This document shows, one piece after another, positions 1 to 13,633 of a stretch of DNA of 13,633 nucleotides (position 1 is the stretch's first letter; each line of letters opens with the position of its first letter). Position numbers and translations under genes: made by a program. Source of the stretch: an uncultured Nitrospiraceae bacterium (GTDB taxonomy: Bacteria; Hydrogenedentota; Hydrogenedentia; Hydrogenedentales; SLHB01); contig CAYRLQ010000098.1 of the NCBI GenBank assembly GCA_964425145.1, positions 1 through 13,633 of the forward strand, read 5' to 3'. The notes under the pieces are model-generated. The model saw only the letters and a program-made list of their open reading frames with translations. It was not told where the DNA came from and ran no database searches.

Positions 1-232
1 GTCATTACGCCCATTTTACCACCAATCAACTTCGCACTATGCACTGTGCACCGTGCACCGTACACTGTCATTACGCCCATATTGCCACCAATCAACTTCG
101 CACTATGCACTGTGCACCGTACACTGTCATTACGCCCATTTTGTCACCAATCAACTTCGCACTATGCACTGTGCACCGTGCACTGTCATTACGCCCATTT
201 TACCACCAATCAACTTCGCACTATGCACTGTT
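1..232. repeat. Tandem direct repeat with a 59-bp unit, at least 4 copies (66, 59, 59 and 48 bp partial). The array begins at the window edge and probably continues upstream of it.
   Basis: Read directly. The unit gtcattacgcccattttaccaccaatcaacttcgcactatgcactgtgcaccgtacact recurs at 1, 67, 126 and 185 with a few substitutions and one 7-bp internal duplication (gcaccgt) in copy 1. There are no unique spacers between copies, so this is not a CRISPR array. Confidence 0.9.
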
Positions 233-932
233 AAACCCGGACCGCCAAAAAATGGAAATAAGGCAGGAACAGGAATTCCAGACCGTCAGTTAGTTCGACT
301 AACTCAGGTACGGCGAAGATCGAGTCGGGAAGGGCCGACTCCAAGGGCCGGGCCGGGTGAACGCCGCAGGCCACACGGAAGCCGGCGCGCATCAATTCCC
401 CGCCCAACTTGCGTCCGATTTCGATGTCGGCGCCATCGGCTGCAAGGGTCTCAGCAAGCCGTCCCATTTGTCCGTGTTCGGTCGGATGCTCCACCGCCCC
501 GCTGTAATCAGGCTCGGCGGCGGCGATAAGATGCCCGCCGGGAGCGAGAACGCGCCTGAGCTCTGCGAGAATCTCCTTCAAGGGGCGCGCCCAGAGGAAG
601 AACATCTGCGTGAAGACCAGATCGAATGTTGCGTTTTGAAAAGGCAGCGACTCGGCCTGGCCGGCAACGCGCCTCCCGGCGGCGAGACGCAGCGTGCCGA
701 TCTCAGAGTCCACACCTACCGCGAAGCCCCGCGCGCGGCGATCGAGTTCGCAAAGGGTCTCGCCAGTGCCCGCGCCAAGGTCCAGCACACGCCTCTTGGA
801 GGCGATGTTGACCTTGCGCAGCAGCCTGCTGCGCTCGCCGGCAAACCAGGCTGCCTGGCGCCGATAAATCTTTTGCAGGTCCGCGGGCTTCAAGGACTTC
901 CCCTCTAACAACCGGGAACTGACGACTAGCAA
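231..932 (-). CDS. Class I SAM-dependent methyltransferase (Methyltransf_11/25-like), last gene of the operon. TTG start as given in the ORF track; the exact start is uncertain.
   Basis: Translation contains the glycine-rich SAM-binding motif I VLDLGAGTGE, the acidic post-I residue in GVDSE, and LAPGGHLIAAAEP (motif III/post-II), a typical Rossmann-fold MTase layout. A 7-bp gap separates it from the upstream gene. Confidence 0.7.
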   Translation of the reverse strand: MLVVSSRLLEGKSLKPADLQKIYRRQAAWFAGERSRLLRKVNIASKRRVLDLGAGTGETLCELDRRARGFAVGVDSEIGTLRLAAGRRVAGQAESLPFQNATFDLVFTQMFFLWARPLKEILAELRRVLAPGGHLIAAAEPDYSGAVEHPTEHGQMGRLAETLAADGADIEIGRKLGGELMRAGFRVACGVHPARPLESALPDSIFAVPELVELTDGLEFLFLPYFHFLAVRV

Positions 933-939
933 CTATCAG

Positions 940-2775
940 CTACCGTCCGCCACCGGCGCAGGCGCAGGCGCAGGCGCAACCGGCGCAGGCACAGCCTCCT
1001 CCGCCTCCGCCTCCGCTGCCGCCGCCCTCGGACAGTTGTGAGAGAAAGTCGCTGGTGAACTGGTCGAAGCGGGAGAGGTCGAGGCCGCCTTTGGCGGTTC
1101 TGCCTAGCGAGTCGAGGCTGCCCGCCAAGCTGCTACACGTGTTCTCCAGGCGCCCGGCCAGCGAGTTCGCCACATCGCCGAAGGACGTAGCCGGTGTGCT
1201 TGGGCCACGGGATGCACCGGCTCGCCCGGGCGCGGCAGTGTAGGTTCCGTGGCCCCGGCCGTACCACCAGTGGGGATAATAGTGGTGGCCACCGCCGACA
1301 TCCCGGAGCTCGCGGTCCCAGTGGTCCTCCAGCATCAGCCAGCCCAGGTGCTTGTCCACGCGCTTGAAGCCGGCCTCATAGCCGGCCTCGGTCTTTACCT
1401 GCTTCCAGGCCCGGGCGACGATGCGCTTGTAATAGTCACGGGTCTGCTTCAGGTCGAATCCGGCCATGGCGCCCATGGTAAACTTGATGAGGCAATCGAA
1501 CGCATCGTCCAGGTTTATCTCCTCGACCGTTTTCCCTTGCTGGGCCTGGAATGCGTGTATAAAGCCCTTTTCATAGTGCCTGAGCTTCCCGCGCTTTCCG
1601 TCGGGCCGCGTCCAGATGTCCCCTGGCGATTCCTCGCCGGTCACCTCCAGCTTGAGCGGTTTGTCATAGCGGACGCGGACCACGCCCTTCTTGGCCAGGC
1701 CGAAGATGACCATGGTCAACACCTTGTGAAGCGGCACATCGAGGAGGATGGCCGCCTCGACGGAGGTGAGGCCGCGCTTTATTCCACCGCCCTCGATGCA
1801 GAGCTCTGCGGGGAAGTAGCGCTCCTTGCGCCGCGCGCGGAGGATGTACGCCAGTACGCCGAGTGCCACTACGATCGGATACAGGCATAGGTGAAATGTG
1901 GGGCTACGGTACATGCCATAACCCAGAATGACCGTCAGGACGATGAGCACGGACCAGCCGGTCCCGCGAGTGGTCTGGAAGAAGATGATGGCGAAAATCA
2001 CGATGAGCGCAATGCCGCTGATAACCTGGGCTTCCCGGCTGTCCTTGAACCACCTGTTGAAGAGGCCCCAGAGGGTATCCTTTCGCACCGCGCTGACGTA
2101 GCGCTTGGGAAAGGATACGCCGAACACGTGTTTCCCGGTCAGGCGCACGGTGCGCACCCAGGCCGCCGAGACAACCTCCTCGCCTTCCATGACACCCTTG
2201 GCGCTGAATTCCTGGCCCTTCTTATGCCAGAGGATGTCGTCTTTCACGGCTGCATAGTCGGCCTTGGGTATGGGCAGCTTGTAGCGCAGAATCAACTTGG
2301 TATTGCCCACAACGTACTGAGACCCAAACCAGGTGGGCGTAAAACGGAAGGATGCCAGTTCGGGGTTGGTCGTGTCCTGCCAGACCATGTTGCGCTCGCG
2401 CGCGGTAAATTCGAAGACACCGGTTTGGCCCGGGCGGACGGTCTGCGGTCCCAGATGAATCTCGTAGCCGCACCCCTTGGGTTTGAGGTAGGTGGAAATC
2501 TTGATGCTGCTACGCGGAAGCGGCTGGCCGTTGACGCTCGCGCTGCCCGGTGTGTGCGGCGCCATGTTGGGCATGCCGATGTCGACGATGTCGATGGGAT
2601 GGGCGCCGCGGTTGCAACTGAACGTCAGCTTGTAATAGACCAGGGCCGAGCCGTCCTCCTCGATGGTTACGGTGACCTGCGCCTCCGGGACGGAGAATTT
2701 GTATTCCGCGGCCAGCGCGGCACGGGCAGGCATAAGGCCCAGGACCAAAAGTATAACGGGCGCGAGTCCCTTCAT
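940..2775 (-). CDS. DUF2207-like integral membrane protein: signal peptide, large extracytoplasmic domain, 3 TM helices, then a cytoplasmic tail ending in poly-Gly followed by a (Cys-Ala)n repeat.
   Basis: N-terminal signal peptide MKGLAPVILLVLGLMPARAALA. Hydrophobic helices at AQVISGIALIVIFAIIFF, WSVLIVLTVILGYGMY and LYPIVVALGVLAYIL. C-terminus ...SEGGGSGGGGGGGCACAGCACACACAGGGR. The overall architecture and Gly-rich tail are as in Pfam DUF2207 proteins; this family call is from memory, not a search. Its ATG lies 9 nt after a GGAGGG that forms the last codons of the upstream rSAM gene. Confidence 0.5.
   Translation of the reverse strand: MKGLAPVILLVLGLMPARAALAAEYKFSVPEAQVTVTIEEDGSALVYYKLTFSCNRGAHPIDIVDIGMPNMAPHTPGSASVNGQPLPRSSIKISTYLKPKGCGYEIHLGPQTVRPGQTGVFEFTARERNMVWQDTTNPELASFRFTPTWFGSQYVVGNTKLILRYKLPIPKADYAAVKDDILWHKKGQEFSAKGVMEGEEVVSAAWVRTVRLTGKHVFGVSFPKRYVSAVRKDTLWGLFNRWFKDSREAQVISGIALIVIFAIIFFQTTRGTGWSVLIVLTVILGYGMYRSPTFHLCLYPIVVALGVLAYILRARRKERYFPAELCIEGGGIKRGLTSVEAAILLDVPLHKVLTMVIFGLAKKGVVRVRYDKPLKLEVTGEESPGDIWTRPDGKRGKLRHYEKGFIHAFQAQQGKTVEEINLDDAFDCLIKFTMGAMAGFDLKQTRDYYKRIVARAWKQVKTEAGYEAGFKRVDKHLGWLMLEDHWDRELRDVGGGHHYYPHWWYGRGHGTYTAAPGRAGASRGPSTPATSFGDVANSLAGRLENTCSSLAGSLDSLGRTAKGGLDLSRFDQFTSDFLSQLSEGGGSGGGGGGGCACAGCACACACAGGGR
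955..1014. repeat. Hexanucleotide microsatellites inside the 3' end of the DUF2207 gene. (GGCGCA)n at 955..993 encodes the Cys-Ala repeat. (CTCCGC)n at ~994..1014 encodes the poly-Gly run.
   Basis: Read directly: ggcgcaggcgcaggcgcaggcgcaaccggcgcaggcacagcc followed by tcctccgcctccgcctccgct. Confidence 0.8.
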
Positions 2776-2781
2776 GGTCTC

Positions 2782-4191
2782 TTAACCCTCCGATGGACTG
2801 TCAGTGCACAGGAAGCGATCGCCGTCACTGAGCGGACAGCCCGAGCCGCACACCTCGAAGTCCGGACACTCGCGGCACGCGTCAGGGGCTGCATCGCGGC
2901 TGCGAACCTCGCGAAAAAGCGGGCTGTTCCAAATCGACTTCCACTCATCGTCCAGAATGTGGCCGACGGGCTTGTAGTAGCTCTGACATGGGATAACCCG
3001 CCCGTCGGGCTCGATGCAGATGTTGTACTCCGCGGCTGTGCAGCGCTTGAAACCCAGGCCGAAGGTCGTCGGGTTCAGTGTACAGTAGTGAGTGGGGGTG
3101 TACCAGATGAAACGGAGGCCGAGCTTTTCTGCCGTGCCCGTGACCTCGCCGAGAATGGGCTCGAGGTCCGCTTCCTCGATGCCCAGCCCCGATTGGGGGG
3201 CCTTGCCCGTGTATATCAGGGAGTTCATGGCGAATTGCCGCACGCCCAACTCCTTCAGGAACTCGATGGTCTTATCGATCGCTTCAACATTCAGCCTGCA
3301 CAGCGTCGTGTTGGTCACCAGGTAGAGGTCGTCATCGATGGCGTTCTTGATGCCCTGCACCGTCTCCTCGAACGCGCCGGGGCAGCCGACCATCTGGTCG
3401 TGGACCTGCTTATCGTGGCTCTCGATAGTGATTTGCACGTGGTCGAGGCCGGCGGCGCAGAGCTTCCTGACGTACTCGCGGTCAGCGAGCTTCCTGCCAT
3501 TGGTGAGGAGTCCGGTGATAATGCCGATGTCCTCGGCCCGCTCAGTGAGTTCCACGAGATGGGGGCTCAGCGTGGCCTCGCCGCCCGTGAAGCACACGTG
3601 GGGTACGCCTATGCCCCACAGCTTTTCGAGAACATGCTTCCACTCTCTCACGCCGAGAGGCTTTACTTCGTCCGGCCGGCGGGCGACATAGCAGTGCAGG
3701 CACTTGTTGTTGCAGGCGTACGTCAGCGCCAGGTCGGCACGGTAGGGCGCCGAGACCTTCCGACCGAAAGGCGGCACAGTGGATACACCCAAGTTGGCGA
3801 CCGGACAGGCGTCCTCCGTGGTCTCCAACTGCTCTACGACCTTGAGGACCTTCCCGTAGTCGCGCGCCACCTCCTCGTGGGCGGCCCGGTAGACCTTACG
3901 CACCGCCGCCACCGCCTCATCCCTGCTCTTGCCGTCGAGGACCTGCTTCATGAGCGCCACGGCGGTTGCGTTGAGGTGCAGCACACCGGACGCGTTCACA
4001 GCCAGAAGGCCCGAGCCGTCCGGGTCCACGCGCAGGTGCAGGCGCAGATAGCGGTCGGCCAATTCGCGGCGGTAATGATAGATGCCGGGCTGCACAGCCT
4101 CGGCACCGGCGAAGAGCCGTTGGAACTTCTCACGCAGGCCTACCATTTGGGTGCCTCCTCGATCTGGTACTCGGATTGGCAGAAAGGGCAT
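2782..4191 (-). CDS. Radical SAM / SPASM-domain enzyme with a fused N-terminal PqqD-like RRE (RiPP recognition element); a peptide- or protein-modifying maturase. Alternative start at 4146 (MVGLREK...), which overlaps the upstream stop in ATGGTAG.
   Basis: CX3CX2C radical-SAM cluster motif (ALTYACNNKCLHCYV). C-terminal SPASM signature CRECPDFEVCGSGC (CX2CX5CX3C), preceded by CTAAEYNICIEPDGRVIPC and followed by FLC. The N-terminal ~120 aa (LRVDPDGSGLLAVNASGVLHLNATAVALMKQVLDGKSRDEAVAAV) match the PqqD/RRE fold pattern. The same domain order is found in AlbA/SuiB/CteB-type enzymes. Confidence 0.85.
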   Translation of the reverse strand: MPFLPIRVPDRGGTQMVGLREKFQRLFAGAEAVQPGIYHYRRELADRYLRLHLRVDPDGSGLLAVNASGVLHLNATAVALMKQVLDGKSRDEAVAAVRKVYRAAHEEVARDYGKVLKVVEQLETTEDACPVANLGVSTVPPFGRKVSAPYRADLALTYACNNKCLHCYVARRPDEVKPLGVREWKHVLEKLWGIGVPHVCFTGGEATLSPHLVELTERAEDIGIITGLLTNGRKLADREYVRKLCAAGLDHVQITIESHDKQVHDQMVGCPGAFEETVQGIKNAIDDDLYLVTNTTLCRLNVEAIDKTIEFLKELGVRQFAMNSLIYTGKAPQSGLGIEEADLEPILGEVTGTAEKLGLRFIWYTPTHYCTLNPTTFGLGFKRCTAAEYNICIEPDGRVIPCQSYYKPVGHILDDEWKSIWNSPLFREVRSRDAAPDACRECPDFEVCGSGCPLSDGDRFLCTDSPSEG

Positions 4192-4487
4192 TTCACGAAG
4201 ATCGCCCCGGCCCGAACCGAAACGCTCTTTGCGTCGAGGGCCGCGCCGCAGCTCTTACAGTTGAGTTCTTCGAGTTGCACGTCGCCGGACAGGTCGATCT
4301 TTCGGGTAACGGTGACCTTGGTCTCTGGCACTTTCATCCGCAGGAAGTAGATCACGGCTATCCCCGCACCGGTCAGGATGCCGCCAAGAATCCAGCGCGG
4401 CCAAATGCCGCTGCTGGCTGCTGCAACGCAGAACATGAGGCCTAATAGCACTAACAAGCCGGCGAAAAGATACCCGACAATCTTCAT
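4140..4487 (-). CDS. Small membrane protein with two N-terminal TM helices and a C-terminal zinc ribbon (CxxC-x18-CxxC).
   Basis: Hydrophobic segments IVGYLFAGLLVLLGLMFCVAAA and ILGGILTGAGIAVIYFL. Zinc ribbon CKSCGAALD...KCPFCQ. ATG at 4487, 17 nt after the stop of the SPFH gene. Its stop overlaps the 4146 start of the rSAM gene. Confidence 0.6.
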   Translation of the reverse strand: MKIVGYLFAGLLVLLGLMFCVAAASSGIWPRWILGGILTGAGIAVIYFLRMKVPETKVTVTRKIDLSGDVQLEELNCKSCGAALDAKSVSVRAGAIFVKCPFCQSEYQIEEAPKW

Positions 4488-4504
4488 CAGGACACCGCTC
4501 CGCG

Positions 4505-5698
4505 TTACGAATTACCAGGTTGGTCCGGCGCAGTTGGATGCACCGGCGGCGCCTCGAGGTTCTGGCCGCAGTCGGGGCAGAACTTGCTGCCCGCGGGGCT
4601 GATCGCCTGGCAGGCAGGGCATACCTCCGGCCCGATCTTAGCACCGCAACTCGAGCAGAACTTGCTATTGGGGTCGATGTCCGCCCCGCATTTGGGGCAC
4701 TTGGCCGTCGTCTCGCCGCTCAGGGGCTTGCCGCAGCCGGCGCAGAACCTGGCGGCGGGCGCATTCTGGTGCTTACAGGCCGGGCAAATCGAGACGCCCG
4801 TGGCCTGGGCCGCGCCGAGTTGCCCCCCCATCACGCCGCCAAGCATCCCGGGCATCATGTGGCCTACGCCGAAGCCGAGGCCCAGCCCCATGCCGGCGCC
4901 CATGATCTGCCCGGCGCCGCCCTCACTCTCGGCGGCCTTCTCGAGCGTGTCGAAGGTGCGTTTCATGCGGTACTTGTCCTCGCCCATGATGTCGATGTCC
5001 GCGCGCGCCGAGAGCGACTGTTTGAGCTTTACTACCGTCGCGTCATCTTCGGGCACGTCGATGGACATCAGCAGGAAGTCGGTGATCTCGAGGCCGTACT
5101 TGGTGAAATTCTCGGCCGTGCGGGCCTTACCGACGGCGGAGGCTTCCTCGAGGTAGGCGGCGATCTCGACGACTGACACCCGCTGCTTGATGATCACCTC
5201 GGCGATGTAATCCTTGAGCCGGGTGGTAATCGCTCCCTTCAGGTAGGTGCTGATGTCCTCGGTGGTGTAGAGTCGGTTTTGGCCGCAGATCACCGTTACG
5301 AAGGTCTTGGAATCGGCCACGCGCATGCCGAAGATGCCGAAGCAGCGCACAGGAACGACCACGTTGAACCTGGGGTCCATCACCTGGATGGGCGCCCGGG
5401 TGCCGAACTTGATGTCTGGAACAGTGCTCTTACTGACGAAGTAGACCTCGGCCGTAAAGGGCGTCTGGCCACCGAAAGGCAGAGCGATCAGTTCCCTAAG
5501 ACCCGGCAAATTGGCCGTGCTCAGCGTGTGCCGTCCAGGCCCGAACACGTCCAGCCCACGGCCCTCCCGGAAGATGACCGCATCCTGGGTTTCGTTCACG
5601 ATCACTTGGGTGGCGGTCGACAAGTTGTCCTGCGGGAACTTCCAGACCAGTTCGCGCGGGCTACCCTCGAACTTGACCCTGTCGATGAATGCGGCCAT
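4505..5698 (-). CDS. SPFH/band-7 (stomatin/prohibitin/flotillin) family protein with a Gly/Met-rich linker and three tandem C-terminal double zinc ribbons; COG4260 / Bacillus subtilis YdjI-like.
   Basis: N-terminal VWKFPQDNLSTATQVIVNETQDAVIFREGR and the following β-rich SPFH core resemble YdjI-type proteins (from memory). A low-complexity GAGMGLGLGFGVGHMMPGMLGGVMGG linker follows. Three repeats of CPxC-x10-12-FCxxCG follow: CPACK...FCAGCG, CPKCG...FCSSCG, CPACQ...FCPDCG. Strong SD AAGGAGGG lies 6 nt upstream of the ATG. Confidence 0.7.
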   Translation of the reverse strand: MAAFIDRVKFEGSPRELVWKFPQDNLSTATQVIVNETQDAVIFREGRGLDVFGPGRHTLSTANLPGLRELIALPFGGQTPFTAEVYFVSKSTVPDIKFGTRAPIQVMDPRFNVVVPVRCFGIFGMRVADSKTFVTVICGQNRLYTTEDISTYLKGAITTRLKDYIAEVIIKQRVSVVEIAAYLEEASAVGKARTAENFTKYGLEITDFLLMSIDVPEDDATVVKLKQSLSARADIDIMGEDKYRMKRTFDTLEKAAESEGGAGQIMGAGMGLGLGFGVGHMMPGMLGGVMGGQLGAAQATGVSICPACKHQNAPAARFCAGCGKPLSGETTAKCPKCGADIDPNSKFCSSCGAKIGPEVCPACQAISPAGSKFCPDCGQNLEAPPVHPTAPDQPGNS

Positions 5699-5735
5699 TT
5701 CCAGCCCTCCTTGTGTCGTTGCCAGTTGCTAGTGG

Positions 5736-6263
5736 TCAGGTAGCGGCAGGTGACGACCAGCCACCCGCAACCTCTCCTAGGCATTTCTTTCGTTGATCGA
5801 ACTGGCGCTCAAATGTCGCCAACGCGGCCTCGAGCCGGTCTGGACCCATCTCCAGCACTACATCGGCGGCGCCCTCGACCTCGGCAAGCTGTTCAAACAT
5901 GCAGCGGTCGTAGGCCAGAAGCCGCGCCAGGTCCTGCTGGCGTATTTTGACCTTGGCGGAAATCGCGCTGTGACCGTAATCGGCGAAGCGCACCTTGTTG
6001 GCGGCCTTGTCGACCAGGTTGAGCAAACGCTCGAGAGCGGCGAGCCCTGCGCCCGCGCGGACATCTTCGCCCGCCGCCTTGATGGCCTTGTTCACCGGTG
6101 TTTTGGCCTCAGACAGCCGCCGGGCGATCTCATCGCGAATCATCTTATCAGCTTCCCAGATGGTGGTATTCTCGAGATATCCCCGGAACACAGGGACCTG
6201 TGCCATTTGCTCGGCGAGCCATCCCCGGTCGGCTTTCATCCGCTGCAGAAGCTTGTCTTCCAT
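5736..6263 (-). CDS. Hypothetical all-alpha-helical cytoplasmic protein (175 aa), first gene of the operon. Start moved to the internal ATG at 6263, which is preceded by GGGAGGAGG.
   Basis: The ORF track gives 5736..6323, but the ATG at 6263 (MEDKLLQRMK...) has a near-perfect Shine-Dalgarno GGAGGAGG 6 nt upstream. No recognised domain; predicted helical and charged. It lacks the PspA/IM30 N-terminal signature. Confidence 0.5.
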   Translation of the reverse strand: MEDKLLQRMKADRGWLAEQMAQVPVFRGYLENTTIWEADKMIRDEIARRLSEAKTPVNKAIKAAGEDVRAGAGLAALERLLNLVDKAANKVRFADYGHSAISAKVKIRQQDLARLLAYDRCMFEQLAEVEGAADVVLEMGPDRLEAALATFERQFDQRKKCLGEVAGGWSSPAAT

Positions 6264-6399
6264 TTCAGACCTCCTCCCGGAATGGGCCGGCGCCTCCGGT
6301 TGCGAAACGACGAGCACGAGCACGTATGGATTGACACGTCTAGTGTCCCCGGCACTCGATTACTCCACAAGCACCCCGTCGCGCCATGGAACCGATCCC

Positions 6400-6445
6400 T
6401 CATAATTTTAACCTATTTGCAGACAAATAACTATAACCCTCGCTT
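6400..6445 (-). promoter_or_regulatory. Candidate sigma70-like promoter region for the six-gene operon, in an AT-rich island between the murA stop and the operon's first gene.
   Basis: Minus strand reads ...agggttatagttatttgtctgcaaataggttaaaattatgagg...; a TAAAAT -10-like hexamer with an upstream T-rich region, but no clean TTGACA at ideal spacing. The only AT-rich patch in the 208-bp leader. Confidence 0.25.
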
Positions 6446-6471
6446 TGTGAAATATCCCTGGGACAAGCAAG

Positions 6472-7725
6472 CTATTCGTGCAGGCGCTCGATGTGGCCGC
6501 CCAAAGTTGCCAAGCGCTCTTCAATACGTTCGTAGCCCCGGTCAAGGTGGTACACGCGCGAGATGACCGTCTCGCCCCTTTCGGCGGCGAGTCCGGCGAT
6601 GATGAGGGCAGCGCTTGCTCGCAGGTCCGATGCCATGACGGGCGCGCCGCTCAGATGGGAGACGCCGCGGACGATGGCCGCGTTGCCGTCCAGGTGAATG
6701 TCAGCGCCCATGCGTTTGAGTTCCGCCACTTGCATGAACCGGTTTTCGAAGACGGTTTCCTTGATAACGCTGACGCCTTCGGCCAGGCAAAGCAGGGCCA
6801 TCATCTGGGCCTGAAGGTCCGTGGGAAACCTTGGAAACGGCCCGGTCGCGACATCCACGGCACGCAGCGCGTTGGGCGCGGAAGCCCGAATTCGAGCGCC
6901 GTGCACTTCGACCTCGGCGCCGGCGGCCTCGAGTTTCTCGAGGAAGTTTGGCAAGTGGGTCGCGTCGGCGTTTTCCACAATCACATCGCCGTGCGTGGCC
7001 ACACCGGCAAGAAGAAATGAGCCCGCCTCGATACGGTCCGGGATCACGGTGTGTTCGGCGCCGCCCAGCGCGCCCACGCCGGTAATTGTGATCTGGTCCG
7101 CGCCCGCGCCGGAGATACGCGCGCCCAGCGCGTTGAGAAACCGGGCCAGGTCTACGATCTCGGGCTCACGGGCCGCATTGCCCAGACGTGTGACCCCTTC
7201 GGCCCGGCACGCCGCCATCATGAGGTTCTCCGTCGCGCCGACGCTCGGGAACTTGAGGTGGACATTCGCACCTTTGAGCCGTCCTTCGGCTATAACATAG
7301 CCGTCCTCGATGGCAATTCGGGCCCCAAGTGCTTCAAGTCCTTTGAGGTGAATGTCGACCGGACGGGTGCCGATGGCGCAACCACCCGGCAGCGACACGT
7401 GCGCGCGGCCAAACCGCCCCAGCAACGGCCCCAGCACGAAAAAAGTCGCCCGCATCTTCCGCACCAGGTCGTAATGAGCCTTCTGGGAAGTAATCGTGGA
7501 TGCGTCGAGCGTCGCCGTGTGCTGCACAAACTTGCTGGTGACGCCCATAGATGACAGGAGCTTTTCCATCGAATAGACGTCGGCCAGGCAAGGGACATTG
7601 TGCAGCACGCACGGTTCCTCGGCCAAGATGGTCGCCGCCATCAGGGGCAGGGCCGAGTTCTTCGCACCGCGCACGGGCACGCTACCTCGCAACGGCGTGC
7701 CGCCCTGTATCCGAATCTTATCCAC
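6472..7725 (-). CDS. murA: UDP-N-acetylglucosamine 1-carboxyvinyltransferase (MurA), GTG start.
   Basis: 417 aa. N-terminal [28 protein letters not shown], the active-site Cys loop [16 protein letters not shown], and full-length EPSP-synthase-like fold-family pattern. Confidence 0.9.
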
Positions 7726-7969
7726 AGTCGATTTCTCGTCGGCCGAATTGATCTGATGTAACGTCCTCTGAGATTACCATAGCACGGCGCAGGAGGCCTC
7801 CATTTTCCGCACCCGGTGCTTGAGAACGACGGCAAAGAGTCTCACGCAAAGGCGCAAAGCTCGCGAAGTTCCCCGATCTATTGATGTCTTGGCGTCTTTG
7901 CGCGATTTTCTCCATCGCGCTCGCAAACCCGTCATAGCACATAGTCAACAAAGGTGTGAGCCCAAAGCA

Positions 7970-7987
7970 CTCGCTTCGGGCCTGAAG
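7970..7987 (-). terminator. Weak candidate hairpin downstream of secG (stem CGCTTC/GAAGCG, 6-nt loop).
   Basis: Inverted repeat cgcttcgggcctgaagcg. On the minus strand it is followed by agtgctttggg, with only a few U residues, so intrinsic-terminator character is weak. Confidence 0.2.
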
Positions 7988-8002
7988 CGTCGCCTGGTTC
8001 GC

Positions 8003-8617
8003 TCAGGCGCCGCCTGCTGAGTCCTCGGGCTGCTCGGCGGGTGTAGGTTGTTGTTCAGCCGGGACCGGCTCGGGCGCCACGGTGACGGTCACCGTGCCAG
8101 GCGGCTCGGTGGTTTCCCCAGGTGCGGCCCCTTCGGTGGGAGGCACTTCCGGCGGTACGGTAACGGTCACTTCGCCGGCCTGCTCAGCGGCTCCCTCAGG
8201 TGGCGGGGGCACCGCTTTTTCCCCCGGGACAGCCTCGGAACCCTCGACGGCCGTGCCGAGGTCATCGAGCATGTCGTCGAGGCTTTCTCCTAATACGCCC
8301 ATCTCTCCCAGGACATCGGCCTCTTCGACCTTGTCCGGGGCGATGCCCTTGCCAAGGCGCCCCGATACCAGGGACATGGCCAAGGCGAGGATCATGAACA
8401 CGGCGGCCATGACGTGGGTCAGCCGAACGGGCAGACTCTGGCTTGCCCGGGGACCGAACACCGTGTCCGAGCCGGGGCCGATGCCAAATGCGCCGGCGAA
8501 GCCGGTCCCTTTGCCCTTTTGCAACAGGACAATCACGATGAGGCCGGCGCAACTGGGCACGTAGAGGATCAACATCAGCCACCACAACGTTTCCCAACGC
8601 CAGATGAATTCCCACAT
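8003..8617 (-). CDS. secG: Preprotein translocase subunit SecG with an unusually long (~110 aa) Pro/Thr/Glu/Val-rich low-complexity C-terminal extension.
   Basis: SecG signature LLQKGKGTGFAGAFGIGPGSDTVFGPRASQ....THVMAAVFMILALAMSLV, with two TM helices. Position immediately after tpiA (27-bp gap) matches the conserved tpiA-secG synteny. SD AAGGAAAA lies upstream of the ATG at 8617. Confidence 0.75.
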   Translation of the reverse strand: MWEFIWRWETLWWLMLILYVPSCAGLIVIVLLQKGKGTGFAGAFGIGPGSDTVFGPRASQSLPVRLTHVMAAVFMILALAMSLVSGRLGKGIAPDKVEEADVLGEMGVLGESLDDMLDDLGTAVEGSEAVPGEKAVPPPPEGAAEQAGEVTVTVPPEVPPTEGAAPGETTEPPGTVTVTVAPEPVPAEQQPTPAEQPEDSAGGA

Positions 8618-8644
8618 ACCAACTGTTTTCCTTATGCTGTTTGA

Positions 8645-9400
8645 CTAAACCGCCGCCTTGACGATGGCGGCGAAACTATCGGCCTTGAGCGAGGCGCCCC
8701 CGACCAGCGCGCCGTCCACATCGGGTTTGGCCATCAACTCGGCCGCGTTATCCGGTTTAACGCTGCCGCCGTATTGAATTCGGACTTGCTCCGCAACGGC
8801 TTCCCCGAACTCCTCGGCCACAAGCCCCCGCACAAACGCGTGGGCCTCCTCGGCCTGCTCCGGGGTTGCAGTAACACCAGTGCCGATGGCCCAGACGGGT
8901 TCATATGCGATGGCGAGCTTGTCGAAATCGGTTCCAGCCAGGTTGACGAGGCCATCAGCGACTTGGCGCCTCAACACGTCGTTCATCCTGCCGCCTTCAC
9001 GCTCCTCAAGGCTCTCGCCGACGCAGAACATAACCTTCAACCCAGCAGCCAGGGCGAACTTAACCTTCTCGTTCAAGAAGGCGTCGGATTCCTTGAAATA
9101 CTGGCGACGTTCGCTATGGCCGACAATGGTCCACGTGCATCCCACGTCCAGCAGCATCTGCGGTGAAATTTCACCCGTATAGGCGCCGCTTTCCTTGGTG
9201 TAACAGTTCTGGCCGCCCATCTCGACGTTTGACCCCCTGAGGGCTTCACCGACGGCATACAGCGCCGCAAAAGTCGGGCAAACCACCACATCAACGGTCG
9301 AGACGTCCCGAGCGAGCGGCTTGATGGCATTGACCAGGCCGACGGCGTCGCCGACCCGCAGATTCATCTTCCAATTTCCAGCGACAAGCGGTTTTCTCAC
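8645..9400 (-). CDS. tpiA: Triosephosphate isomerase. Start moved to the GTG at 9400; the ORF-track start at 9529 is an upstream in-frame extension.
   Basis: The conserved TIM N-terminus RKPLVAGNWKMN begins directly after GTG (9400..9398), which is preceded by GAAGGG. Catalytic and loop motifs present: NAIKPL..., IVGHSERR, VIACVGE-like FCVGESLEERE, IAYEPVWAIGTG, and the QYGGSV phosphate-binding loop. Confidence 0.9.
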   Translation of the reverse strand: MRKPLVAGNWKMNLRVGDAVGLVNAIKPLARDVSTVDVVVCPTFAALYAVGEALRGSNVEMGGQNCYTKESGAYTGEISPQMLLDVGCTWTIVGHSERRQYFKESDAFLNEKVKFALAAGLKVMFCVGESLEEREGGRMNDVLRRQVADGLVNLAGTDFDKLAIAYEPVWAIGTGVTATPEQAEEAHAFVRGLVAEEFGEAVAEQVRIQYGGSVKPDNAAELMAKPDVDGALVGGASLKADSFAAIVKAAV

Positions 9401-9536
9401 GGCAATACCCTTCGCTAAACAGCTACGACAGCCCTGCAAATCCTGCCCGAATCGTAGCACAACCTCTCGGAACAACGCAAGATGAGTTGCTGGCAGTCCA
9501 CTGCTGGTGGCCGGTTTTTCAACCGGCAACTATTAA

Positions 9537-9761
9537 CTAAGTACCGCTCAACACAATTAAGATCACACAATGGGGCGGAGTATATCCCCAGCACGTCATT
9601 GCGAGGAGCGAAGCGACGCGGCAATCTCGCTCCGGCCAAGTCCTTGCACTTAAGGAGATTGCCGCGCTCCCTGCGGTCGCTCGCAATGACGGGGGCGGTG
9701 GTTGCCTCCCGCAAGCCGCTGAACCCGATTTGTGGCCTTATTTGTGTTGAGCAGTACTAAG
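9537..9761. mobile_element. MITE-like non-coding element: 25-bp terminal inverted repeats (CTAAGTACCGCTCAACACAATTAAG ... CTTATTTGTGTTGAGCAGTACTAAG) enclosing an internal long imperfect palindrome (arms 9595..9628 and 9655..9690).
   Basis: Read directly. Outer arms match 22/25 as reverse complements. Inner arms share perfect 11-bp (gtcattgcgag) and 13-bp (cgcggcaatctc) segments around an internal mismatch bubble. No plausible ORF; sits in the 434-bp divergent intergenic region. Confidence 0.4.
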
Positions 9762-9834
9762 TGCGAGGCGCGAAGTGCTGAGTGCGCGAAGGTGGAGCGT
9801 CGGCGTACCGCCCATGCACTGAAGGAGAGGAACG

Positions 9835-11316
9835 ATGAGAAAATGGAGCTTGATGATTCTATTGACAGTGCTCGTTGCCATTGCGAGCCAGGCCGAGCTG
9901 CAGAATGTCGAGGCTGGTCCGGTTATACAGCGCCGACTCGACGTGAAGCTCGTGGATCCGCTCAAAGGCGCGTTCGAGGGGGCCGAGACGACCCTCGAGA
10001 ACCAAACAGACCTTGCCGTGACCGTGTATAATAACAACCTGGCGCTCGTGCGGGACCGGCGCAAGGTCGAGCTGTATCCGGGCCATGTTTCGTTGCAGTT
10101 TGCGGATGTCGCACAACAAATCCGGCCGGAAACGGTGAGCCTGGAGTCAATTTCGGAGCCGGGAAAGCTGCATATCCTGGAACAGAACTATGAGTATGAC
10201 CTGATGAGCCCGTCAAAGTTGATGGAGAAATACGTTGGGAAACCGGTGCGGCTGGTGAATTTCAGCACGGAGATCGGGTTCACCGAGGTCGAGGCGCAAC
10301 TGTTGAGCATCAATGAGGGCCCGATCTACCAGGTGGGCGATGAAATCTACCTTGGACATCCGGGCCACGTGGTGCTGCCGGAAATCCCCGAGAACCTGAT
10401 CGCGAAGCCGTCGCTGATCTGGCTCCTGGACAATGATGGCACGGACCATGAGATCGAGGTGACATACCTGACCGGCGGCATCGACTGGCGTGCGGATTAC
10501 GTGATCACGCTGGACCGCGACGAGACCACGATGGACCTGACGGGCTGGGTGACCCTCAAGAATCAATCAGGCGCGACGTATACCAATACGCGGTTGAAAG
10601 TGGTCGCGGGCGAGGTACACATCGCGCAACCGGCCGTCAGAGAAGCCTATGGCCGCGGCGGGCGGATGCTCGCGGCCAAGGTCGCTCCGATGCGCGAGGA
10701 AACGTTTGCGGAATATCATCTGTACACACTCCCGCGCCGGACCACGATCAAAGAGAACCAATCCAAACAGGTGAACCTGCTCAGCGCTGCGGGAATTCGC
10801 GCGAAGAAGGTATACGAGTTTCGCGGCAACGAATCGTTCTATAGCGGACCCGTGCCACCCCTGAAGGACCAGAAAGTGGCAGTGTTTCTCAAATTCACTA
10901 ACAAGAAGGAGAATCAATTGGGCATTCCCCTGCCGGCGGGCGTGATGCGGATTTACCAGGAGGACAGCGAGGGGATGCGGCAGTTCGCGGGCGAGGATCG
11001 CATCAAGCATACGCCCAAGGACGAGGATGTGAGGCTGCGGATGGGCAACGCGTTCGATGTGGTCGGCGAGCGCGTGCAGACCGATTACGAGCGTGTCGCG
11101 GAAAAGGTGCACGAATCGGCCTTCGAGATCAAAATCCGCAACCACAAAGAAAACGACATTACCGTGGATATCGTCGAACCGATGACGGGCGATTGGAAGA
11201 TCCTGAGCAAGTCCCACGACTTCGTGAAAAAAGATGCGCGCACGGCCGTGTTCTCCGTCCCCGTGGCCCAGGACGGCGAAGCGGTGGTGACTTACCGCGT
11301 CCGTGTCAGGTATTAG
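9835..11316 (+). CDS. Secreted DUF4139/DUF4140-domain protein (TIGR02231 'mucoidy inhibitor MuiA'-like family).
   Basis: Signal peptide MRKWSLMILLTVLVAIASQA; SD GGAGAGG 5 nt upstream of the ATG. Long β-rich protein with motifs recalled from DUF4139 proteins: VTYLTGGIDWRADYV, MDLTGWVTLKNQSGATYTNTRLKVVAGEV. Family call is from memory. Confidence 0.55.
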   Translation: MRKWSLMILLTVLVAIASQAELQNVEAGPVIQRRLDVKLVDPLKGAFEGAETTLENQTDLAVTVYNNNLALVRDRRKVELYPGHVSLQFADVAQQIRPETVSLESISEPGKLHILEQNYEYDLMSPSKLMEKYVGKPVRLVNFSTEIGFTEVEAQLLSINEGPIYQVGDEIYLGHPGHVVLPEIPENLIAKPSLIWLLDNDGTDHEIEVTYLTGGIDWRADYVITLDRDETTMDLTGWVTLKNQSGATYTNTRLKVVAGEVHIAQPAVREAYGRGGRMLAAKVAPMREETFAEYHLYTLPRRTTIKENQSKQVNLLSAAGIRAKKVYEFRGNESFYSGPVPPLKDQKVAVFLKFTNKKENQLGIPLPAGVMRIYQEDSEGMRQFAGEDRIKHTPKDEDVRLRMGNAFDVVGERVQTDYERVAEKVHESAFEIKIRNHKENDITVDIVEPMTGDWKILSKSHDFVKKDARTAVFSVPVAQDGEAVVTYRVRVRY

Positions 11317-11412
11317 ATAGTTTCTGCTGCGGAAAGGCCAACGGATTGGGACAAGGGTTCTTTTACTATCATCCTGAGCGACGCGAAAGGTCTCGAAACA
11401 CCGTAAACCCTT

Positions 11413-11432
11413 GTGAAATCGAGGTTTTTCAC
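11413..11432 (+). terminator. Candidate hairpin (GTGAAA/TTTCAC stem, U-containing loop) downstream of the DUF4139 gene. A larger 9-bp stem (acaagggtt / aacccttgt) with a 46-nt loop lies at 11351..11414.
   Basis: Inverted repeats read directly. No clean U-tract after the stem, so terminator function is uncertain. Confidence 0.2.
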
Positions 11433-11464
11433 TGCTCTTAGAATGACCGTGAGGGGTGGCTTTG

Positions 11465-12109
11465 ATGAGAACGCTGACAGCGGCGCAGATGCGCGAGGCT
11501 GACAGGCGATGTATTGAAGATATCGGCATTCCCGGCGCAGTGTTGATGAATAGTGCCGGGGGCGCGGTATTCCGCGAGATCGATCGAGGACCGGTCGGCG
11601 TGGTTTGCGGAAAAGGCAATAACGGCGGGGACGGGTACGTGGTCGCGCGGCTGGCCATACTGGCAGGATTTGAAACCCGTGTAGTACTGCTGGCGAGGCC
11701 CGATGAGATTCGGGGTGACGCGGCGACGTTTATGCAGGTGTACCAGAATCTGGGCGGCGAGATTCTGAGCGTAATCGAGGAGGACGCGGCGGAGGAGGCC
11801 GTTGCGGGATTGAAAGATTGCGCCGTGTTAGTGGACGCGCTCTTGGGAACAGGGATAACCGGCACGGTGCACGGACCAGCTCGTGCAGCCATCGAGGCGT
11901 GGCCGGCCGTGCGGACGATTGCGGTGGACTTGCCCTCGGGGCTCAACGCGGACACTGGTGAGGTTTGCGGATGTTGCGTCAAGGCTGATGTGACCGTGAC
12001 TTTTGGGTTCGCTAAGAAGGGTTTTGAAAATCCCACAGCCCGGAACTATATCGGCCGCTTGGTCGTGGCGGACATCGGCATTCCGGAAGTCTGCGCCGAA
12101 GGGTTGTAA
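11465..12109 (+). CDS. nnrE: NAD(P)H-hydrate epimerase (YjeF N-terminal domain only; not fused to the ADP-dependent dehydratase domain).
   Basis: Diagnostic YjeF_N motif VVCGKGNNGGDGYVVAR. SD GAGGGG lies 8 nt upstream of the ATG at 11465; the track's 11456 GTG start is less well placed. The protein is only ~214 aa, so no C-terminal carbohydrate-kinase-like dehydratase domain is present. Confidence 0.75.
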   Translation: MRTLTAAQMREADRRCIEDIGIPGAVLMNSAGGAVFREIDRGPVGVVCGKGNNGGDGYVVARLAILAGFETRVVLLARPDEIRGDAATFMQVYQNLGGEILSVIEEDAAEEAVAGLKDCAVLVDALLGTGITGTVHGPARAAIEAWPAVRTIAVDLPSGLNADTGEVCGCCVKADVTVTFGFAKKGFENPTARNYIGRLVVADIGIPEVCAEGL

Positions 12110-12185
12110 ACCACGGCTACGGCCGGTGCGGCATTACCGTAATCCGATTGGCCACGAAAACACACCAATCAATAGGCTGAGAACA

Positions 12186-12227
12186 CCCTCAAACGGGTTT
12201 GAGGGCGCCCCCAGCCGCATTTGAGGG
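12186..12227 (+). other. Hairpin ccctcaaacgggtttgaggg (8-bp stem) followed by a third copy of tttgaggg; possible terminator/attenuator or REP-like element between nnrE and thpR.
   Basis: Read directly. Followed by cgccccc rather than a U-tract. Confidence 0.2.
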
Positions 12228-12267
12228 TCTTTGCGCACGTGAAACCGACAGCTAATTCAGAGGGGTC

Positions 12268-12822
12268 GTGCGGACATTTATTGCGATCGAGCTGCCGAAA
12301 GCGGTGAAAGAGGCACTCGGGGCGCTGAGCAACCGGTTGCGTCGGTCTGGGGCGAAGGCGACCTGGGTGCAGCCTGAGAACGTACACCTGACGCTCCGGT
12401 TTCTGGGGGATGTGTCGGAAAGCGTCGTAAACAAGCTGGGCGAGCGCCTGGCCGTGGCCTACCAGGATTTGGAACCATTCACGTTGTCGATGGCGCGCAC
12501 GGGCGCGTTTCCGAACCTGCGCAGGCCGCGTGTGATTTGGGTGGGTGTGGGGCCGCTCGAGGGCGGACTGGCCGAGGCGCAGGCCATTGCCGAGGAAGCC
12601 GCGGTGTGGGTGGGGCTTGCACCCGAGAAGAGGCGGTTCCAGCCGCACTTGACCGTGGCGCGCATCCGGGACGCACGCGAACTTGGCGGCCTACCGATGT
12701 GCCTGGCCCAGGAAGCAGATTTCGCTGGTGGTGAATTCGTGGTGGAGAATGTGTCATTATTCTCGAGTCGGTTAACCCCGAATGGCCCCGTTTATCGGCG
12801 ATTAAAAGAGTTTTGTCTGTGA
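12268..12822 (+). CDS. thpR: RNA 2',3'-cyclic phosphodiesterase (2H phosphoesterase, LigT/ThpR family), GTG start.
   Basis: Two H-x-T-x motifs in the right context (HLTLRFLG and HLTVARI). N-terminus RTFIAIELP is typical of ThpR. 184 aa. Confidence 0.8.
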   Translation: MRTFIAIELPKAVKEALGALSNRLRRSGAKATWVQPENVHLTLRFLGDVSESVVNKLGERLAVAYQDLEPFTLSMARTGAFPNLRRPRVIWVGVGPLEGGLAEAQAIAEEAAVWVGLAPEKRRFQPHLTVARIRDARELGGLPMCLAQEADFAGGEFVVENVSLFSSRLTPNGPVYRRLKEFCL

Positions 12823-13094
12823 ACGATATCTTCATTCGAGCGGCGCGCAACTTACTGACGCTGTACATGCTGCTGATCTTGGTGCGCTGGGTGGCGTCCT
12901 GGATCGAGTTTGATATGATGGCGCCGCGCTGGCGCTGGATTCCCCGGTTGACTGACCCGCTGATAGACCTAATGCGCCGATTGTTGCCGTCGATGGGGCC
13001 AATGGACTTCGGACCGATAGCGGCGTTGTTCCTGGTATGGCTGGTCAGGCTCCTTTCGTGGAACTTGCTGCTGAGCGTGCAGTTCGGCCAATAG
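12819..13094 (+). CDS. yggT: YggT family (Ycf19-like) small integral membrane protein. Start taken at the GTG at 12819 that overlaps the thpR stop (GTGA).
   Basis: Two hydrophobic helices flanking the conserved DPLIDLMRRLLP...DFGPIAALFLVWLV pattern of YggT proteins. 4-nt GTGA start/stop overlap with thpR suggests coupling. Confidence 0.6.
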   Translation: MNDIFIRAARNLLTLYMLLILVRWVASWIEFDMMAPRWRWIPRLTDPLIDLMRRLLPSMGPMDFGPIAALFLVWLVRLLSWNLLLSVQFGQ

Positions 13095-13126
13095 GGGGCA
13101 ACGTAAACTGGGGGGCTGCCTGCGGT

Positions 13127-13633
13127 ATGAGTGCTGAACACGGCGACTTCGACAGGGAACGCGATCGTATGGTAAGCGGGCAGATTGTCGCCCGGGGTGT
13201 GAAGGAGCCCCGCCTGCTCGAGGTCATGCGGCGCGTGCCCCGGCACCGTTTTGTGCTACCAGAATACCGCCACCAGGCCTATGTGGATCACCCGGTGCAA
13301 ATTGGCTGCGGGCAAACCATTTCCCAGCCGTACATGGTAGCCCTGATGACCGAATTGCTTGAGTTGACGCCGGAGGACCGGGTGTTGGAAATCGGTACCG
13401 GGTCTGCGTATCAAACGGCGATCTTGGCCGAGTTAGCCAAGGAGGTGGTGACCATCGAGCGCCATGAACCCCTGGCTGATCGCGCGCGCGAACGGCTCGA
13501 GGAACTCGGGTACGACAACGTGGTTGTGCTGGCTGGGGACGGCACGCTGGGCTGTCCGGAGCACGCACCGTTTAACGCCATCCTGGTAACAGCGGCTGCA
13601 CCGCGCATCCCCTCCTCGTTGCGCGACCAGATG
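13127..13633 (+). CDS. pcm: Protein-L-isoaspartate O-methyltransferase, 5' partial (169 codons; runs off the window end). Not in the ORF track because no stop is reached.
   Basis: Hand translation from the ATG at 13127: MSAEHGDFDRERDRMVSGQIVARGV...IGCGQTISQPYMVALMTELLEL...VLEIGTGSAYQTAILAEL...VVLAGDGTLG. All are canonical Pcm motifs (GQTISQP, EIGTGSGYQ, GDG). Confidence 0.85.
   Translation, partial: MSAEHGDFDRERDRMVSGQIVARGVKEPRLLEVMRRVPRHRFVLPEYRHQAYVDHPVQIGCGQTISQPYMVALMTELLELTPEDRVLEIGTGSAYQTAILAELAKEVVTIERHEPLADRARERLEELGYDNVVVLAGDGTLGCPEHAPFNAILVTAAAPRIPSSLRDQM

Follow-up and report, generated by a model that had tools for sequence, protein, structure and literature searches.

A probable IS630-type miniature inverted-repeat element with a REP-like core in the tpiA/DUF4139 spacer of an uncultured bacterium

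What is the long inverted repeat that separates tpiA from a divergently oriented DUF4139 gene in the genome of an uncultured bacterium? We addressed this question in a 13,633-nt stretch of DNA (contig CAYRLQ010000098.1, positions 1 to 13,633 of the forward strand), which we refer to as the window. The repeat, a 225-bp unit at 9537-9761, had been described from its letters as either a transposable element of the miniature inverted-repeat type (MITE) or a large structured RNA. Our analysis makes it very probable that this unit is one copy of a non-autonomous, IS630-type MITE that is inserted at the pentamer CTWAG (W, A or T) and has a core built on a dimer resembling the CGTC-tagged repetitive extragenic palindromes (REPs). 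The MITE interpretation is supported by dispersed near-identical copies, by a transposase-encoding partner with the same termini and by the same short flanking sequence at both ends. The element itself is an ordinary IS630-family MITE. Less ordinary are the widespread REP-like palindrome at its core and the CTWAG pentamer at both of its ends.

Structure and dispersal of the 225-bp unit

Copies of the unit are present at many sites. BLAST searches recovered the whole unit at approximately 11 other sites, at 95-99% identity and with unrelated flanks. The preliminary description had allowed for a single-copy palindrome without homologues, which is not what we found: dispersed, near-identical homologues exist. 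Sequence sharing between sites covers exactly positions 9536-9762 of the window and nothing beyond, and several copies are cut by contig ends. All copies of the window's subfamily (subfamily 1) share the entire 225 bp at 95-99% identity, including the subterminal segments. Every copy is intergenic. The copies occur in both orientations relative to their neighbours and usually lie 20-100 nt from the start or end of a gene, and in two cases the stop codon of the upstream gene falls inside the bordering pentamer.

The architecture of the unit matches what had been described. Its terminal inverted repeats match at 22 of 25 positions when 9537-9561 (CTAAGTACCGCTCAACACAATTAAG) is compared to 9737-9761 in reverse complement (CTTAGTACTGCTCAACACAAATAAG), and their length is within the 15-30 bp expected of bacterial MITEs. 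A repeat search extended the terminal arms to 9536-9574 and 9724-9762 (39 nt, 79% complementarity). Each strand of the 13.6-kb window contains the 17-nt terminal core (AGTACYGCTCAACACAA) exactly once, giving two occurrences where 0.02 are expected. The nested long palindrome is also present, with imperfect arms of ~35 nt at 9594-9628 and 9655-9691 and a 26-nt spacer between them. The same search resolved exact 12-nt pairs within these arms (9594-9605/9680-9691 and 9617-9628/9655-9666). The unit has no coding capacity, and its length, 225 bp with the pentamers counted, is within the MITE range of ~70-300 bp. The open reading frames (ORFs) that cross it, 9482-9760 on the plus strand and 9415-9714 on the minus strand, are mechanical ones that run through the palindrome into the flanks.

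We used the termini to search for further members of the family. A 22-nt pattern that fits both termini matched 14 loci in JGI metagenomes, nearly all of them from the Ga0315533/541/547 series, in which pieces of the window are also found at 100% identity. When 185,579 reference genomes were scanned, the 17-nt terminal core had 37 single matches, in unrelated taxa, below the ~139 calculated for chance. On inspection, only the match in L009, a metagenome-assembled genome (MAG) labelled Nitrospiraceae, continues as a true element end, and the scan found no copies in GTDB species representatives. The element terminus had 0 matches in a scan of viral contigs. A second short subfamily of ~218 bp is represented by L051 (2091-2308) and L054 (361-579). 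It has the same termini and an unrelated palindromic core (arms TTTGGAGTGCGGCGRCACGACGCCGCTTT), and its core arm had 0 exact matches in viral contigs.

Assemblies made independently break at the element. At the window's own locus, L185 ends at 9535, L043 at 9565, L186 at 9569 and L184 at 9611, and L038 starts at 9812. Logan contigs end ~30 nt into the repeat at both the window locus and the L056 locus, as expected of a collapsed repeat in a resource built with k = 31. The element-bearing contigs have a G+C content of 0.57-0.61. Those of at least 8 kb show tetranucleotide correlations of 0.81-0.87 with the window, compared to 0.46-0.78 for GC-matched unrelated genomes. This signature is compatible with, and no proof of, an origin in one genome or in close relatives. 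The DUF4139 homologues that carry names come mostly from Candidatus Hydrogenedentes/Hydrogenedentota MAGs, which points to Hydrogenedentota as the probable host phylum. We conclude that the element family was probably amplified recently in one lineage, probably of the Hydrogenedentota.

The stability and placement of the unit raise the alternative that it is a repeated structured non-coding RNA gene or a cis-regulatory RNA, with the hairpin acting as an mRNA stabiliser or as a processing or termination signal. The predicted fold is very stable, at -115.1 and -115.9 kcal/mol on the two strands (z = -7.0 and -7.4 against shuffled sequences), but any long inverted repeat gives such z values on both strands. 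The copies are often found 20-100 nt from gene starts or ends, and co-transcribed bacterial MITEs and REPs have been reported to be active at the RNA level (PMC3733652). However, the fold is equally good on both strands, the copies have no fixed orientation relative to neighbouring genes, and the boundaries of the unit coincide with IS630-type termini. A scan of the spacer found no promoter-like site and no terminator-like U-tract within the element. Rfam gave no match at the gathering score across the whole window, nor at E <= 10 for 9380-9860. A covariation check found a compensatory change in 0 of 86 predicted pairs and showed that most substitutions at paired positions break the pair, although the seven full copies are too little diverged for this result to be decisive. 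The large structured RNA that had been offered as the alternative to a MITE thus gains no support from Rfam or from compensatory changes, and we consider it very improbable that an RNA function explains the unit. An RNA-level side effect of co-transcribed MITE copies is possible.

An IS630-family partner and the CTWAG border

A mobile element without coding capacity would need a transposase from elsewhere. Four metagenome loci matched the termini of the unit only. The element in L048 is ~1.27 kb long, begins with TACTGCTCAACACAAATGAGTATA and ends with a diverged inverted copy of it. This element encodes a transposase in two overlapping frames (489-1644, minus strand). The first frame (orfA) has HTH_28/23/29 domains. 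The second (orfB) has a DDE_3 domain (2.3e-19) and scores 166.5 bits against the NCBIfam model NF033545, IS630 family transposase, for which the cutoff is 100. The presence of two overlapping frames suggests programmed frameshifting. The partner transposases in L048, L187, L189 and L190 have orfA products of ~107-118 aa and orfB products of ~266-275 aa, and some of their database relatives are single proteins of 360-400 aa. Relatives at 68-90% identity number in the thousands and sit, with few exceptions, on contigs of 1.2-1.5 kb, the outcome expected when a repeated insertion sequence (IS) assembles alone. The closest annotated relatives on plasmids are genes for an 'IS630 family transposase' at 38-44% identity.

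The ends of these elements align with those of the MITE. The left terminal inverted repeat of the window element (9542-9566, plus strand, TACCGCTCAACACAATTAAGATCAC) pairs with 9732-9756 and aligns with the ends of IS630-family elements in L048, L187, L188, L009 and L189. Its counterpart on the right (9732-9756, minus strand) is the reverse complement of TACTGCTCAACACAAATAAGGCCAC, as seen in the sequence, the repeat search and the end alignment. The ends of full-length ISs in L187, L188 and L189/L190 likewise align with the MITE ends, and L009 has the same first ~37 nt at the end of its contig. We predict that these repeats are the binding sites of the transposase. The short elements share with the IS only ~25-30 nt at each end, indicating that the MITEs are not simple internal-deletion derivatives. 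The left subterminal segment (9567-9593) is kept in all subfamily-1 copies, and neither the IS nor subfamily 2 has it. The right subterminal segment (9692-9731) is also subfamily-specific by the copy alignment and contains a small local hairpin in the predicted fold. The shared termini suggest that the MITE is mobilised in trans by an IS630-family transposase.

We compared the sequences that border the copies. The window element is flanked on the left by CTAAG (9537-9541) and on the right by a direct repeat of the same pentamer (9757-9761), as its sequence and the comparison of copies agree. MITEs and full-length ISs alike begin with CT-W-AG-TAC at 14 of 14 aligned ends, with CT.AG invariant and W variable. 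The copies compared show no repeat outside the pentamer, which confines any duplication to the pentamer itself. Over 1282 bp, the IS copies in L189 and L190 differ only at the two W positions, and MITE copies at 97-99% identity carry either A or T at W; W is therefore not inherited along with the element. CTAAG and CTTAG at the tips are probably target-derived and outside the inverted repeat proper. The same W stands at left and right in the window, L056a, L058, L054 and L057 (A/A) and in L050 (T/T). Because W varies between near-identical copies and usually agrees within a copy, we favour an insertion that targets CTWAG and duplicates a segment centred on W.

The length of this duplication is constrained by which copies are seen. 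Duplications of 1 bp (element AGTAC...GTACT), 3 bp (element GTAC...GTAC) and 5 bp (element TAC...GTA) all predict the same sequence, and since the element tips regenerate the palindrome, the size cannot be read from the sequence. If TA alone were duplicated, the copies should all read CTAAG...CTTAG (element AGTAC..GTACT) or all read CTTAG...CTAAG (element GTAC..GTAC). The majority of copies are A/A or T/T and so do not fit a pure TA duplication; an odd-length duplication fits them. In the mechanism that we propose, the element proper would be the ~215 bp of non-coding DNA between the two CTAAG pentamers. An IS630-family DDE transposase made elsewhere would bind the ~25-nt terminal inverted repeats and excise the element, which would then insert into a palindromic CTWAG pentamer. 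Insertion would duplicate 1, 3 or 5 bp centred on W, and the tips (AG/TAC...GTA/CT) would rebuild the palindrome.

A tandem arrangement was seen at one locus. Two copies in L050 (100-365) abut head to tail with a single shared CTAAG pentamer, and a rare variant (GGGCTGTA) is common to both at the equivalent end. The arrangement points either to an insertion into the target regenerated by the other copy or to a tandem duplication at the locus.

We searched for an empty site, which for the window locus would be predicted to read ...GGCAACTATTAACTAAGTGCGAGGCGCGAAG.... At DUF4139 orthologous loci in relatives, synteny is broken upstream and no empty site was found. Contigs that encode an identical TpiA all carry the element or break at it, and at the L056 locus every alternative assembly breaks within the copies. 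Flanking target-site duplication had been named as an expected property of a MITE. A CTWAG-type pentamer stands at both ends of every copy and W agrees in 6 of 7 apparently clean copies, but several other copies disagree at W, and no empty site was recovered. We regard target-site duplication at CTWAG as probable.

Several observations weigh against this account. W disagrees in L047 (C/A), L051 and L183 (both A/T), L189 (T/A) and L190 (A/T), and the pentamers of L187 are CTATG/CTTAG. L051 has the same left flank as L054 and a different right flank. One flank of L051 and one of L183 are found again on another contig, and for this reason we read both as joins between copies, made by recombination or by the assembler. 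A Logan contig reveals at least two left junctions in the sample of L189/L190, and flank swapping across the 1.3-kb repeat is plausible at both loci. The full-length IS copies thus give a mixed outcome on the duplication, probably confounded by flank swapping in short-read assemblies. Agreement at W in 6 of 7 apparently clean MITE copies corresponds to p ~0.1 under independence (A ~65%, T ~35%). In the Ga03155xx assemblies we found no full-length IS with the exact MITE termini; L048 belongs to a different sample series, and L009 to the MAG labelled Nitrospiraceae. The element-bearing contigs are all short-read metagenome assemblies, and we assign them to one genome on the basis of their co-occurrence in samples and their tetranucleotide similarity. 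Finally, with the empty site not recovered, we infer both transposition and duplication.

We compared the element and its partner to known members of the IS630-Tc1-mariner group. TA duplication is the rule in this group, with TAA/TAAA duplications in Fot/pogo (PMC7386202) and TATA in Sailor (PMC8533490). Since these variants have been reported, a variant duplication would not be unprecedented, and non-TA duplications in the group are documented only for its eukaryotic branches (PMC7386202, PMC8533490). The partner resembles the group in that it is recovered by the IS630 equivalog model and combines N-terminal paired helix-turn-helix domains with DDE_3 in two overlapping frames. Its target, too, is a short palindrome with a central TA-containing core. 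The difference lies in the centre of the pentamer, which is variable (CTAAG or CTTAG) and implies an odd-length duplication (1, 3 or 5 bp). IS630 itself prefers CTAG, and in IS870 CTAG completes the stop codon. Zator, which is related to the bacterial TP36 transposases, has been described with 3-bp duplications.

The closest parallel for the short element that we considered is RUP of Streptococcus pneumoniae, a 107-bp, A+T-rich element that was proposed to be mobilised by IS630-Spn1 (PMC2229807). Both elements are small, non-coding, intergenic and multicopy, both have terminal repeats that match an IS630-family IS, and both have an insertion site that contains TA. In contrast to RUP, the present element is G+C-rich and, at 225 bp, twice as long. 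Its interior is unrelated to the IS and is built on a REP-like dimer. It has CTWAG at every end, and the classical TA duplication cannot yield its majority of A/A and T/T copies. Its host is an uncultured lineage, probably of the Hydrogenedentota.

A REP-like dimer at the core

Where does an interior that is unrelated to the IS come from? The two arms of the inner palindrome are copies of one motif of ~26-34 nt, CGTC-ATTGC...GCAAT-CCA/CTC. The short form of the motif reads (C/T)GTCATTGCGAGCGnAGCGAAGCAATC with the tail (CA/TC), and the window provides the long form at 9594-9628. This left arm (plus strand, CGTCATTGCGAGGAGCGAAGCGACGCGGCAATCTC) was delimited by the repeat search and motif scans as a long-form CGTC-tagged REP-like unit. 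The right arm (9655-9691, minus strand) is a second such unit in inverted orientation, with the tags outward, which corresponds to an HH dimer in the terms of PMC3733652. The tags, CGTC at 9594-9597 and GACG at 9688-9691, are outside in the dimer, and the window's tail is CTC. The 26-nt spacer between the two units (9629-9654) is the central 'bubble' seen in the sequence, the repeat search and the fold. The inverted pair would give a rod-like fold as single-stranded DNA or RNA.

The arm motif is widespread. We scanned viral contigs with a degenerate 22-nt pattern and found at least 120 loci (L063-L182) from many unrelated samples, compared to roughly 1 chance match by a rough estimate. Among the matches listed, comprising 143 viral copies, GTC is preceded by C in 92 and by T in 49, and the tail after GCAAT is CCA in 60 and CTC in 35. 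A tag-outside inverted partner accompanies 65 of the 143 (45%), and the median length of these dimers is 82 nt. Used alone, the 34-nt long-form arm found matches of 91-97% in Halomonas and Methylosinus replicons and in gut phages. Solo units of the motif also occur in the same metagenomes as the MITE (L057, 8241-8283; L049, 4725-4752). In viral and prophage contigs of unrelated environments, the motif stands singly, often just upstream of a ribosome-binding site and start codon, or forms tag-outside pairs. No paper was found when the literature was searched for the arm sequence as text, and the sequence is absent from the text and supplements of PMC3733652. A search for covariation of the arm's small stem with the pattern GTCATNHNGAGCGNAGCGAANNNATC gave only 2 matches; the pattern is too rigid to be informative, as the sister motifs vary in length.

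We compared the core arms to the CGTC-tagged REPs described by Di Nocera, De Gregorio and Rocco (2013, PMC3733652), which include Neisseria dRS3 and Rickettsia RPE-4/6. Those repeats have an unpaired CGTC tag (or TGTC or CCTC), a stem with a complementary A/T start and a short unpaired tail with the consensus CCA. They mostly form tag-outside HH dimers, often heterodimers, and have no dedicated transposase (PMC3733652). The core arms share the CGTC/TGTC head and the complementary A/T start of the stem, which in the window arm reads AT...AT, and their head-to-tail length of 22 nt is in the range of the CGTC-REP family. The motif's 3-nt tail is most often CCA among the viral copies and is CTC in the window, HH dimers predominate and are often heterodimers, and no transposase gene is associated with them. 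The hairpin is different. Only 5 bp (ATTGC/GCAAT) pair around an irregular interior of 12 nt in the short form and at least that in the window arm, compared to an 8-9-bp stem with a 4-5-nt loop in REPs, and for this reason we call the arms CGTC-REP-like and not members of the family. In addition, the phyla covered by PMC3733652 do not include Hydrogenedentota, and the present dimer lies inside an element that is bounded by terminal inverted repeats of an identified transposase family.

The independent spread of the arm motif allows a different reading of the locus, in which the inner dimer is the mobile unit (of the REPIN type, moved by a RAYT/HUH tyrosine transposase or another enzyme) and the outer repeats are only its palindromic target. 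The frequent tag-outside dimers among viral copies would agree with this. So would the fact that the two MITE subfamilies combine common termini with different palindromic cores, as if cores had been inserted into a minimal element. There are also precedents for REP dimers within longer palindromes, namely GTAG-15 of A. variabilis and CGTC-1 of H. neapolitanus (Di Nocera et al., PMC3733652, section 7). As in those cases, our REP-like dimer is central in a longer inverted repeat, and the outer palindrome was not found without the dimer. In contrast, the outer palindromes of GTAG-15 and CGTC-1 were linked to no IS, whereas the outer repeats here are IS630-family termini, and a second subfamily of our element carries another core. 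What is amplified is moreover the whole 225 bp, subterminal segments included, at 95-99% identity, and metagenome searches found no core-less version of the unit. We saw no RAYT gene, although no systematic search for one was made, and according to published work no transposase is dedicated to CGTC REPs. Movement of the inner dimer alone is therefore a most unlikely explanation of the dispersed copies, though it may describe how the core first arrived.

We return to the IS630-type MITE as the preferred reading, in which the interior is built around an inverted, tags-outward pair of a REP-like unit that is found independently in many unrelated genomes. A broader proposal extends this reading, and we put it forward tentatively, as something we do not expect to hold in full. 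Orphan CGTC-tagged REP-like palindromes might spread as MITE cargo that is moved by IS630-family transposases; an IS630 subgroup might use CTWAG with an odd-length duplication (probably 3 bp, TWA); and the two subfamilies might reflect repeated capture of palindromes by a minimal element made of two terminal inverted repeats.

Two short segments of the right flank resemble parts of the core. The segment TGCGAGGCGCGAAG (9762-9775) is identical at 13 of 14 positions to 9600-9613 in the core arm, and CCATGCACTGAAGGAGA (9812-9828) is identical at 15 of 17 positions to 9642-9658 in the core spacer. The similarities in 9762-9828 may represent a degenerate solo REP-like unit beside the insertion site, or chance.

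The tpiA/DUF4139 locus and the meaning of the element

The element lies between a minus-strand series of tpiA (Pfam TIM, 9e-98), secG and a murA/aroA-type gene and the plus-strand DUF4139 gene. The spacer is longer than the 434 bp first given: with the 240-aa TpiA of the gene callers, which starts at an ATG at 9367, it measures 467 bp (9368-9834). Scanning this spacer, we found no sigma-70-like promoter and only two weak terminator-like sites, both in the flank at 9486-9511. The separate small hairpin outside the left end of the element is present as described, with arms at 9507-9516/9521-9530 in the repeat search. This hairpin (9507-9530) consists of GCCGGTT-TTTC-AACCGGC with extensions and lies 140 nt upstream of the tpiA start. 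It belongs to the unique flank: L183-L186 and L043 keep it together with the tpiA flank, and the other copies lack it. Neither strand carries a T-tract behind the stem, so the hairpin is not a typical terminator. The element may influence tpiA/secG expression, as had been suggested, or the DUF4139 gene.

A further alternative accepts the element as real and takes its context to be a chimeric join through the repeat, made by an assembler or by homologous recombination, so that there would be no native 'divergent promoter region'. The breaks that most assemblies show at the element are in line with such a join. L183 joins an identical tpiA flank and element to another right flank, the 3' end of a DprA-family gene. 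In relatives with a 75-81% identical DUF4139 protein, the downstream synteny is kept and the upstream neighbour is a DUF4139 paralogue, not tpiA. The pentamers, however, point to L183 as the recombinant: those of the window match (CTAAG/CTAAG) whereas those of L183 do not (CTAAG/CTTAG), and the three mismatches of L183 are all in the right part of the element. A 15,224-nt contig also carries the window's SecG and DUF4139 proteins, although it may not be an independent assembly. On balance we think it unlikely that the window is the chimera. Because an alternative join exists, the adjacency of tpiA and the DUF4139 gene may nonetheless be a product of the element. The L183 region (1100-1480, corresponding to window 9400-9800) comes from another sample series, and the stop codon of its dprA-type gene is inside the pentamer. 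Its arrangement reflects either recombination between copies or an assembly chimera.

Comparison with related loci gave several observations on the neighbouring genes. In the relatives L059-L062, compared with window 9835-13100, the DUF4139 gene is the second in a tandem pair of DUF4139 paralogues, and the pair is preceded by a conserved 356-358-aa protein without a Pfam hit. The downstream genes YjeF_N, LigT and YggT are common to the window and L059-L062. The upstream DUF4139 pair is missing in the window, and the break in synteny falls at the element. In L056 (2946-3172 and 4662-4748; also L193-L196), two element copies in the same orientation bracket a DUF4139 paralogue, P0114, which is 472 aa long and 65% identical to the window's DUF4139 protein. 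One of these copies lies 76 nt upstream of the P0114 start and the other begins at its stop codon. The orientation is the same in the window, whose element stands 73 nt upstream of its DUF4139 gene. This recurring association may be a coincidence or a composite-like arrangement.

Other genes of the window were annotated in passing. The SecG homologue (8003-8617, minus strand) is unusually long at 204 aa, and its Pfam SecG domain spans residues 15-83 only. A minus-strand cluster at 940-5698 encodes a 611-aa protein without a Pfam hit, a radical SAM/SPASM protein, a 115-aa protein without a hit and a Band_7 protein with zinc-ribbon domains (by annotation in L039/L041).

These results have consequences for how the locus is read. 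The spacer should be annotated as a mobile repeat and not as a regulatory RNA, and the spurious 92- and 99-aa ORFs should be dropped. The element explains the fragmentation of assemblies at this site and the alternative joins, so the tpiA/DUF4139 adjacency should not be over-interpreted. Beyond this locus, our analysis describes a family of IS630-type MITEs that was amplified recently in an uncultured lineage, and it provides a concrete case of a CGTC-type REP-like dimer that is carried inside an element of a known transposase family. The CTWAG insertion rule, if confirmed, would widen the known target repertoire of bacterial IS630 relatives.

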